Shown: piece after piece, positions 842-1,762 of the stretch
Layout of the letters: every line of letters begins with the position of its first letter
How positions within the stretch are numbered: the stretch's first letter is position 1
IMG/VR virus record: IMGVR_UViG_2654587792_000025
Origin: a virus
Taxonomy: Duplodnaviria; Heunggongvirae; Uroviricota; Caudoviricetes
Strand: one strand, 5' to 3'
Length of the DNA: 14,932 nt
Notes under the pieces: generated by a model
The model's input: the letters and a program-made list of their open reading frames with translations, nothing else
Databases searched by the model: none
Told to the model about the DNA's origin: nothing
Program-made: the position numbers and the translations under genes

Positions 842-919
842 CACAGCGTTGAGCGGTCTGGTTTATGTTAGCGGAGTCTTAATCGAGTTGTTTAAAAGGC
901 CAAACCGCTCAACGCTGTG
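842..919. repeat. Perfect 16-bp inverted repeat (cacagcgttgagcggt at 842-857 / accgctcaacgctgtg at 904-919) with a 46-nt loop, abutting the 3' end of tRNA-Ser
   Basis: Read directly from the sequence; the two arms are exact reverse complements. Confidence 0.8.
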
Positions 920-922
920 TCT

Positions 923-1008
923 GGCGGAGAGTAATGGAATCGAACCATCATCGCTTGCGCAATGGGACGGCTTTCAAGACCGCTTGAGCACCATGCTCCC
1001 TACTCTCC
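923..1008 (-). tRNA. tRNA-Ser (anticodon UGA), type II with long variable arm and atypical D-arm
   Basis: The reverse complement reads ggagagt...cggtc-cttgaaa-gccg...gttcgattcc...actctcc-g-cca: a 7-bp acceptor stem, anticodon loop CUUGAAA (UGA), a variable-arm hairpin cattgc-gcaa-gcgatg, a T-loop ttcgatt and an encoded CCA. The D-arm (gagca-tgg-tgctc) is non-canonical, so a covariance model is needed to confirm. Confidence 0.55.
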
Positions 1009-1221
1009 AATTGTTGTGGTGCCGGGTGCTTCCCGGTGTCCTTTGGCTGGTTATCCACCGTGGACGGAGCCAATAGTCATCACAAAGGATCAATATAACC
1101 ATTTCCCCGCGTGCGCTTAGCCGCATTCACCACAACGAAAAGAGCACTGTATGACGTTTGCACGGACTTACGCTTCAAACAGGGCAGTCTCGGCGGTTCT
1201 CAATGCTCTTTCCTGTTGTGT

Positions 1222-1297
1222 TGGTGCCGGTTAACGGATTCGAACCGCTGACATCCTGCTTACAAGGCAGGTGCTCTACCAACTGAGCTAAACCGGC
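1222..1297 (-). tRNA. tRNA-Thr (anticodon UGU)
   Basis: The reverse complement, gccggtttagctcagttggtagagcacctgccttgtaagcaggatgtcagcggttcgaatccgttaaccggcacca, folds into a canonical cloverleaf: perfect 7-bp acceptor stem, D-loop agttggtag, anticodon loop cuUGUaa, T-loop ttcgaat, encoded CCA. Length 76 nt. Confidence 0.85.
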
Positions 1298-1299
1298 AT

Positions 1300-1374
1300 T
1301 GGCGATGGTGGGTGGATTCGAACCACCGACCAGTTGGTTAACAGCCAACTGCTCTACCGCTGAGCTACACCATC
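1300..1374 (-). tRNA. tRNA-Asn (anticodon GUU)
   Basis: The reverse complement, gatggtgtagctcagcggtagagcagttggctgttaaccaactggtcggtggttcgaatccacccaccatcgcca, has a perfect acceptor stem gatggtg/caccatc, anticodon loop cuGUUaa, T-loop ttcgaat and an encoded CCA. Length 75 nt. Confidence 0.85.
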
Positions 1375-1640
1375 AATTCGGCACTGCCAGTATTTATTAC
1401 TCAACAGTGCCAATCGCGACGGTTTAGTTTCTGCCAGGAAACGCACCGCTACTTGCACTTTTCGTTAGTGCCAGACGCTTTCGACTTCGCTCAATAGTAG
1501 AAGGCAAAATCTTTAAGTAGATGATGTTTCTGAGGACAGCACCTACTTTGTAATTTATACAATGTGATGTATGGAATCATTTGTTGTGAAAACAGGCACC
1601 AATGGCAACAGTGGTTAAACCTACACAACAATCCTGTCTT

Positions 1641-1762
1641 CACAACGTTGAGGCCACTACTCCGATTGAATGTTTGCCCAACATGTTACATATCAACGCT
1701 CGCCGGTATCTCTGTGAATAGAACCTTAGAATTGATAAAAATGTAATGGCCTCAACGTTGTG
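1641..1762. repeat. Perfect 15-bp inverted repeat (cacaacgttgaggcc at 1641-1655 / ggcctcaacgttgtg at 1748-1762) with a 92-nt spacer; core related to the 842-919 repeat
   Basis: Read directly from the sequence; it shares the core CACA(A/G)CGTTGAG with the inverted repeat next to tRNA-Ser. Confidence 0.8.

Follow-up and report, generated by a model that had tools for sequence, protein, structure and literature searches.

Stems of about two helical turns that lie between functional RNAs and are processed by RNase III are known from early-region sites of T7 such as R1.1, from the 16S and 23S ribosomal RNA stems, which also free spacer transfer RNAs (tRNAs), from the tRNA cluster of T4 and from DicF, and RNase III participates in the processing of both of the latter. 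The dimer of this enzyme accommodates a duplex of ~22 base pairs (bp) (PMC6212723). Other described systems that resemble the one considered here are the tRNA region of the P1 ban operon (trnA, trnT, plp, upl, dicF-like), the small RNAs (sRNAs) STnc100 and PasD, which have been described as related prophage sRNAs (bioRxiv 10.64898/2026.05.13.724894), and, at the level of DNA, the integron attC sites, which are likewise imperfect palindromes, 57-141 bp long, in which the outer boxes are conserved and the centre varies. The stretch of DNA analysed here (the window; 14,932 nucleotides (nt) of the Caudoviricetes record IMGVR_UViG_2654587792_000025) carries two long inverted repeats, IR1 and IR2, in a region with tRNA genes, and it is very probable that these repeats are hairpins of one family that have been selected at the level of the RNA.

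IR1 had been predicted to be a 16-bp inverted repeat abutting the 3′ end of tRNA-Ser, and direct pairing analysis re-found its 16 perfect pairs at 842-857/904-919. The stem reaches 20 bp (842-861/900-919) by way of one odd pair, which is C·A on the plus strand and G·U on the minus strand, and on the minus strand it forms a hairpin (842-919, RNA-sense arms 919-900/861-842) with a 38-nt loop that holds the conserved decamer AAGACUCCGC and with a predicted fold of -37.5 kcal/mol (z = -8.5), located 2 nt from the CCA of tRNA-Ser. IR2 exists as predicted, except that 16 perfect pairs were counted instead of 15; these are joined by one odd pair of the same kind as in IR1 and by three further pairs, giving a 20-bp stem (1641-1660/1743-1762, minus strand) whose arms, as in IR1, are 95% complementary. 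Its loop of 82 nt is structured, the minus-strand RNA folds at -47.8 kcal/mol (z = -6.5), and the hairpin sits in a leader, 267 nt upstream of tRNA-Asn. The two had been taken for copies of one element on account of a shared core, and further copies, detected in the window as well as among relatives and unrelated phages, strengthened this view. Four occurrences of the 12-mer CACARCGTTGAG were counted in the window as against 0.15 expected, a number reached in none of 200 shuffles. A third hairpin, absent from the original prediction and imperfect by one bulge (CACAAC-AGG-AAAGAGCAUUG ... CAGUGCUCUUUUCGUUGUG; 1131-1220, minus strand; -36.9 kcal/mol, z = -4.3), begins 1 nt past the CCA of tRNA-Thr, and its membership in the family was assessed by comparing its sequence with the ‘type B’ hairpins of other phages. 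The long, widely spaced and near-perfect inverted repeats found in a scan of the whole window are only IR1, IR2 and a hairpin at 1834-1922. Neither repeat has the GC-rich stem and U-run of an intrinsic terminator, IR1 being followed by AUAGACAAUU and IR2 by AAGACAGG, with the true terminator at 765-745, and neither was called by ARAGORN or Rfam as a tRNA or a tRNA-like RNA (YrlA and transfer-messenger RNA included).

The case for selection on RNA comes from the way in which the stems vary. A set of 43 distinct arm pairs was compared, in which stem positions 13-19 were not fixed by the search pattern; these positions carry three to five pair types each, with U-A kept without exception at position 18. 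Covariation scored 0.439 versus 0.158 for shuffled pairs (0 of 500 reach the observed value). The arms pair to 93% in register, compared with 32-50% in slid registers, and positions 21-22 are mostly unpaired, the family-wide pairing ending at position 20. An alignment of 14 IR2 sequences, found by similarity and not by pattern, keeps 19 stem pairs with alternation of U·G, C-G and U-A and with three double-change columns, and IR1 shows paired substitutions relative to the pHCM2/Enterobacter lineage (GUUGAG/CUCAAC to GCUGAA/UUCAGC) that leave the stem intact. When 50 distinct hairpins were oriented by nothing but the tRNA closest to them, the non-Watson-Crick cells on the tRNA strand were G·U in 54 instances versus A·C in 5. 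Position 17 is U·G in 25, C-G in 13 and U-A in 12, so that the 5′ arm holds the pyrimidine in every case and the reverse orientation never occurs. Between the window and Klebsiella, the IR1 arms are identical at 40 of 40 positions, with 87% identity in tRNA-Ser and 56% in the loop. Because of the covariation, the stop at 20 bp and the large excess of G·U over A·C on the tRNA strand, the pairing has very probably been selected in the transcribed strand. It counts against this conclusion that part of the set was gathered by a pattern fixing 10 of the first 12 stem positions and that the counts are of sequences and not of independent events, which is offset by the fact that at least six distinct hairpin types share the covariation and asymmetry features. 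The original prediction had proposed that relatives be compared for covariation as opposed to exact conservation, and the comparison revealed compensatory changes that keep the stems paired. Of the two roles that it offered, processing or stability stems of a tRNA precursor fit these changes, the G·U pairs on the tRNA strand and the spacing of 0-2 nt after the tRNA, as far as the sequences can tell; sites at which a recombinase or another DNA-binding protein would bind in pairs found no support, as the upper arms differ among copies yet stay complementary, and as the strand asymmetry is suggestive of a molecule that is transcribed and single-stranded. Separate protein sites on the DNA are unlikely since the G·U/A·C pattern would not be expected from them.

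Judged from sequence, homologous hairpins are present in SSU5-like plasmids of at least six genera, in P1, P7 and D6 and in many ~40-kb prophages; plasmid records with a match number 653 for the IR1 region and 457 for the IR2 region. The IR1-type hairpin follows the last tRNA, which is tRNA-Ser in the window and in Klebsiella and tRNA-Asn in pHCM2 and Enterobacter, always 1-2 nt past the CCA; a second type (CACAACGGUAAGGG...) stands directly after tRNA-Asn in Klebsiella and Cronobacter. In P1, P7 and D6, an unrelated phage-plasmid group, these hairpin types come after tRNA-Thr and tRNA-Ser, together with a CACAACGUUGAG hairpin whose stem measures 19 bp. Viral contigs scanned with a pattern gave 120 loci, and the distinct matches fall into two well-separated groups, 11 with 9-13 Watson-Crick pairs over the first 20 positions, which is the chance level, and 69 with 16-20. 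A second scan in which the closing helix was left free mostly returned (U/G)(A/G)CAACG with CGUUGUG again, U·G and G·U included, from many contigs of ~40 kb, and a scan of one genome per species located a subfamily in Rahnella, Pantoea and Erwinia. Across the family, the loops range from ~25 to 82 nt and are unrelated in sequence between types. When 62 distinct contexts were sorted, 22 hairpins start at a tRNA 3′ end, the CCA and the hairpin start being 0-2 nt apart, 24 are followed by the STnc100-like start [AG]TGAATG, and one ends at the 5′ end of tRNA-Arg; 17, IR2 among them, have the form ‘minihelix + A/G + hairpin’, with a minihelix of 5-7 bp (GCYGG...CCRGC) reminiscent of an acceptor stem that has collapsed. 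One E. coli prophage has a hairpin that lies in the gap after the repressor-like ymfK, ahead of an STnc100-like domain, and between a terminator and a promoter-like TTGACA-spacer-CATAAT/TAATGT that was picked out by eye and not by a scan of the locus. In K-12, CPS-53 has no such hairpin and the dicF-dicB spacer holds only an STnc100-like domain. As a separate observation, the ‘type B’ hairpin that follows tRNA-Thr in phage D6 (1988-2067 of its locus, L008, minus strand; 16-17-bp stem) carries in its loop both a canonical T-arm, AGGGUUCGAAUCCCU, and a stem like that of a D-arm, and resembles a tRNA-derived element without an anticodon arm, though called by no tool; within the family, the T-arm-like sequence is limited to this D6/P1 ‘type B’ relative.

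The window derives from a phage-plasmid of the SSU5/pHCM2/pMT1 type, with 97-99% identity to Escherichia phage Cyrano, CMS-2020a and more than 100 SSU5/pHCM2-type E. coli plasmids. Between ~2150 and 745 the whole sequence is non-coding and shares its strand with the ligase and small open reading frame (ORF) genes that lie upstream, and all the window copies of the hairpin family are on the minus strand within this one unit. Its order is leader, tRNA-Asn (GUU; 1300-1374), tRNA-Thr (UGU; 1222-1297), the third hairpin, an STnc100/PasD-like domain (1013-1136), tRNA-Ser (UGA; 922-1008, called by ARAGORN), IR1, a conserved tail of ~65 nt and terminators, all on the minus strand, the first two tRNAs being known from tRNA prediction. 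The leader (1375-2100), which contains IR2, is structured (minimum free energy -255.5 kcal/mol, z = -9.5 against shuffles, supported by a six-lineage alignment), and its ~725 nt are conserved in relatives from E. coli, Enterobacter, Salmonella pHCM2, Citrobacter, Cronobacter and Y. pestis pMT1. Within it, a minihelix GCUGG(U/C)...GCCAGC (1764-1782, minus strand; 6 bp, 7-nt loop), recognized from the alignment, ends 1 nt before IR2 and covaries in relatives (GCTGGC/GCCAGC versus GCTGAC/GTCAGC), while directly 3′ of IR2 the inverted-repeat scan found a helix GUUGUGAAGACAGG/CCUGUUUUCACAAC (1583-1646, minus strand), conserved in relatives (1451-1520 in L002/L003), which overlaps the final 6 nt of the IR2 3′ arm. 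The hexamer CACAAC and its complement close every non-tRNA helix in the unit, and 7 of the 15 copies in the window lie within 1013-1762 in alternating orientation. The unit ends at 745-841 (minus strand), where alignment and terminator scan show, in this order, the conserved 3′ tail AUAGAC..ACGGCAGACGUUCUUAACC, a weak hairpin that has a U-run, and the strong terminator; the tail after IR1 has 83-88% identity to distant lineages, across genera.

The STnc100/PasD-like domain directly follows the third hairpin, precedes tRNA-Ser and is closed by a 9-bp stem, GUUGUGGUG/CACCACAAC. It was recognized by a match to RF02076 that scores 44.8 bits at 970-1154, with its 3′ part entering tRNA-Ser, and thus stays just under the gathering score of 47 bits. 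The arrangement is the one seen in many prophages, namely a hairpin directly followed by a domain that starts with GUGAAUGCG and falls a little short of the STnc100 threshold; it differs from the described sRNAs in that the Rfam model does not cover the hairpin and that the domain in the window lacks a separate terminator, being embedded between the third hairpin and tRNA-Ser. Together, the hairpin and the domain make up a 205-nt module flanked by 23-bp direct repeats (1003-1025/1208-1230, 78% identical) that mimic the 3′ end of tRNA-Thr, and Cyrano precisely lacks this module, with a single hybrid repeat in its place.

As to what the hairpins do, the explanation that we favor, with a little less than even confidence, is that they may serve as RNase III punctuation marks between the RNA modules of a long non-coding precursor; we infer the transcription as one unit, the cleavage and the identity of the nuclease. 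According to this proposal, the leader, tRNAs, hairpins, STnc100-like domain and terminators would be transcribed from the minus strand as a single precursor, in which each hairpin offers a fixed 20-bp stem with the closing helix CACARCG/CGYUGUG, a pyrimidine-purine pair (usually U·G) at position 17, U-A at position 18 and a variable loop. Host RNase III would cut the stem, exonucleases would then trim the 3′ end of the tRNA, and the 3′ arm GUUGUG, once freed, could serve to close the domain that comes next or to start the terminal RNA as its 5′ end; the stems would also guard adjacent modules against misfolding and maintain structure in a transcript that is not translated. A shared pairing of GUUGUG with a following CACAAC is seen twice, between the third hairpin, whose 3′-side GUUGUG also belongs to the closing stem of the STnc100-like domain, and that stem, and between IR2 and the helix at 1583-1646. 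Since only 0-2 nt separate the CCA from a two-turn stem, there is no single-stranded site for RNase E, and because of this lack of room, and because a two-turn duplex suits the RNase III dimer, cleavage by RNase III is favored. The 20-bp stems agree with the intramolecular duplex of ~20-22 bp that marks RNase III substrates, the downstream terminator in the window backs the context of a transcription unit, and in the P1 record the tRNA region with family hairpins is annotated inside the C1-controlled ban operon.

The comparison with known RNase III stems extends to the phage or prophage setting and to a length near the ~22-bp duplex held by the dimer (PMC6212723). The known sites are, however, not one homologous sequence family, whereas here the closing helix, the fixed 20 bp and the U·G at position 17 recur across unrelated phages; here, too, the stem lies 0-2 nt from the tRNA CCA, and cleavage is only predicted. 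The likeness to the P1 ban operon rests on the tRNA-Asn/Thr pair (~91% identity), on family hairpins between and after the tRNAs and on a repressor-controlled operon together with replication genes. P1 differs in belonging to another phage group and in that its record has opposite-strand ORFs annotated over the hairpins and no RNA elements there, and no sequence homology was found between its leader and that of the window. Several observations weigh against the punctuation proposal. The sequence-conserved closing helix is not explained by RNase III alone, because the sequence preference of this enzyme is weak, and a factor of greater specificity may take part, or GUUGUG may have two pairing roles. 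The IR2 loop is conserved (64% identical, sub-helices kept), as is the IR1 loop decamer, and these pieces hint at a function beyond that of a cleavage site. Cronobacter has no IR2 arm at the equivalent of window 1641-1660 (the 3′ arm in RNA sense), and IR2 is therefore dispensable in at least one lineage; finally, no consensus sigma-70 promoter was found upstream of the leader in the window at the scan threshold.

Among the alternatives that keep the hairpins at the RNA level, it is rather unlikely that they are stable small RNAs in which the stem is a nuclease-resistant scaffold and the loop the active part (a seed or a protein site), freed by tRNA processing. The loop conservation would be accounted for (AAGACUCCGC in three IR1 lineages, YCACAGAG and sub-helices in IR2 loops), and as tRNA ends adjoin the hairpins on one side or the other, the hairpins could be set free as discrete species by RNase P together with 3′ trimming; stable RNAs of unassigned function are indeed present in the T4 tRNA cluster. 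Yet the IR1 loops are only 52-56% identical between lineages where the stems are 85-100% identical, the decamer is absent from one lineage (L031) and has no significant second copy or evident target in the window, and the loops, ~25-82 nt long, are unrelated in sequence across types. We consider it still less probable that the hairpins are insulators that work without cleavage, by letting the tRNA and sRNA modules next to them fold on their own, blocking 3′ exonucleases, keeping Rho and RNase E off a long transcript that is not translated, or activating RNase E cleavage beside a tRNA as a neighbouring structure. That the entire leader is a chain of hairpins (z = -9.5) speaks for such a role, and the last variant is kept alive by the use of neighbouring stem-loops, as RNase E cutting downstream of a tRNA needs an adjacent structure for which a simple stem-loop suffices (PMC9841416). 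A generic insulator, however, needs neither a fixed 20 bp nor a closing sequence nor a pyrimidine-purine pair at position 17, and the spacer between CCA and stem leaves RNase E no single-stranded site. Of a similarly low order is the chance that the hairpins form a new phage-borne, tRNA-linked RNA class in which the sequence-specific 20-bp stem (CACAACG/CGUUGUG, U17·G) would be read by a dedicated factor and not by generic RNase III. The stem would then be a lock that, as long as it is neither cut nor opened, stops GUUGUG from closing what follows (the STnc100/PasD-like sRNA, or else the helix behind IR2), or it would be a scaffold showing the variable loop as cargo; if the lock were real, release of the tRNA would be coupled to phage small RNAs becoming active.

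That the repeats act on the DNA, as recombination sites or module boundaries (attC-like, similar to miniature inverted-repeat transposable elements (MITEs), or paired sites bound by a regulator or a recombinase) by which cassettes of tRNAs and sRNAs would be shuffled, is very improbable. Such a role would explain why the module content varies among relatives at or near the hairpins, the repeat-flanked 205-nt module missing from Cyrano being an example, why some relatives (H135, L018) diverge exactly at the outer edge of IR1, and why the outer CACAAC/GTTGTG loosely resembles the integron R boxes: (A)CACAAC ... GTTGTG(T) compared with RYYYAAC ... GTTRRRY gives one misfit position per box. Against this stand the G·U versus A·C asymmetry, which follows the transcribed strand, the compensatory change in place of fixed sequence in the upper stem, perfect stems without the extrahelical bases typical of attC, and copies that all have one sense and occur nowhere but in units of non-coding RNA; the repeats were also examined for target duplications, integrase linkage and dispersed copies, and none were seen. 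The Cyrano deletion can be explained by ordinary recombination between tRNA-Thr-like 3′ ends. An assignment to attC itself was rejected, given the 16 consecutive perfect pairs without extrahelical bases, the tRNAs and non-coding RNA as neighbours and a strand bias that follows transcription; no integron integrase was found among the three window ORFs searched against Pfam, and there are no ORF cassettes at the hairpins. MITE or transposon termini were likewise dismissed, the flanks (TAT/TCT at IR1, TCTT/TGCT at IR2) having no target duplication and the copies lying in one RNA unit in one sense, and so was site-specific recombination at the Y. pestis breakpoint at IR2, where diverged homology runs on past IR2. 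The probability that the repeats are chance or neutral palindromes without function is negligible in the face of four copies of the 12-mer where 0.15 are expected, of conservation above that of the adjacent tRNA, of the strong covariation and of hairpins in three unrelated phage groups.

The structure and the distribution of the hairpins are solid, and their function is predicted. What has been found is a homologous, sequence-defined hairpin module at the tRNA/sRNA junctions of temperate enterobacterial phages, which is new as an RNA motif and belongs to a general kind that is known. Rfam searches at the gathering threshold and at E <= 10 of the window, D6, the prophages and 14 viral loci placed no family over the hairpins and gave only spurious microRNA-like matches there; a full-text literature search for the 12-mers returned only unrelated primers, and nothing on these hairpins was found in the literature on the P1 ban operon, the tRNAs of SSU5 phage-plasmids or the pMT1 sRNAs. 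In the temperate phages and phage-plasmids of Enterobacterales (SSU5/pHCM2/pMT1-, P1-, lambdoid/e14-like), the maturation of tRNAs and small RNAs is barely studied, and a conserved junction hairpin is a testable handle on the processing of their non-coding arrays. The hairpin also links phage tRNA genes to the STnc100/PasD sRNA family of pathogenic E. coli, and the motif could enter RNA family databases and serve to find such arrays. Since spurious ORFs are now called over the hairpins, a correction of annotations is warranted. In the window, the plus-strand ORFs 834-1076, 1564-1746 and 1847-2119, which cover tRNA-Ser, hairpins and leader, are probably spurious, as are 6093-6305 at locus L001 and the ORFs labelled ‘C-type natriuretic protein’ in plasmid records; of the two opposite-strand ORFs in the P1 record, plp is placed on family hairpins, with an overlap into trnT, and upl on the structured domain that adjoins them.

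Several other features of the locus were noted. The hairpin at 1834-1922 (minus strand) is long and conserved, with 23-nt arms and a 43-nt loop, covaries in relatives and has a sequence different from the family; it is preceded at 1925-1950 (minus strand) by a perfect 10-bp hairpin, GGAGGGAACA/UGUUCCCUCC, and along with IR2 they turn the leader into a chain of stems. The most conserved stretch upstream of the leader contains, at 2122-2143, a perfect 8-bp palindrome (GATAAGTA-N6-TACTTATC), kept even in Klebsiella, which overlaps a weak minus-strand -35/-10-like pair and resembles an operator for the tRNA-unit promoter. At the other end, 775-841 (minus strand) has the layout of a 3′-end-derived, possibly Hfq-binding, small RNA. 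The dicF-dicB spacer of the E. coli K-12 prophage Qin (L139, ~2950-3090) holds its STnc100-like domain as GUGGUGAAUGCGGCUGAGCGCACGCGG ... CACCUGGAGGCACCAGGCAC, unannotated in the K-12 record. In a Pfam search of three flanking window ORFs, the ligase match was the only one. Beyond the terminator to the left of IR1, positions 1-741 are a variable spot, occupied here by the end of a 246-amino-acid ORF of no assigned function and in the equivalent place by glutaredoxin and integrase genes (Cyrano), AbiH (Klebsiella), a DUF4238 protein (Enterobacter) or the caf1 capsule operon (Y. pestis pMT1). Lastly, a 26-nt AT-rich near-palindrome unrelated to the hairpin family (9183-9235; 85% complementary, 1-nt spacer) lies between divergent ORFs.

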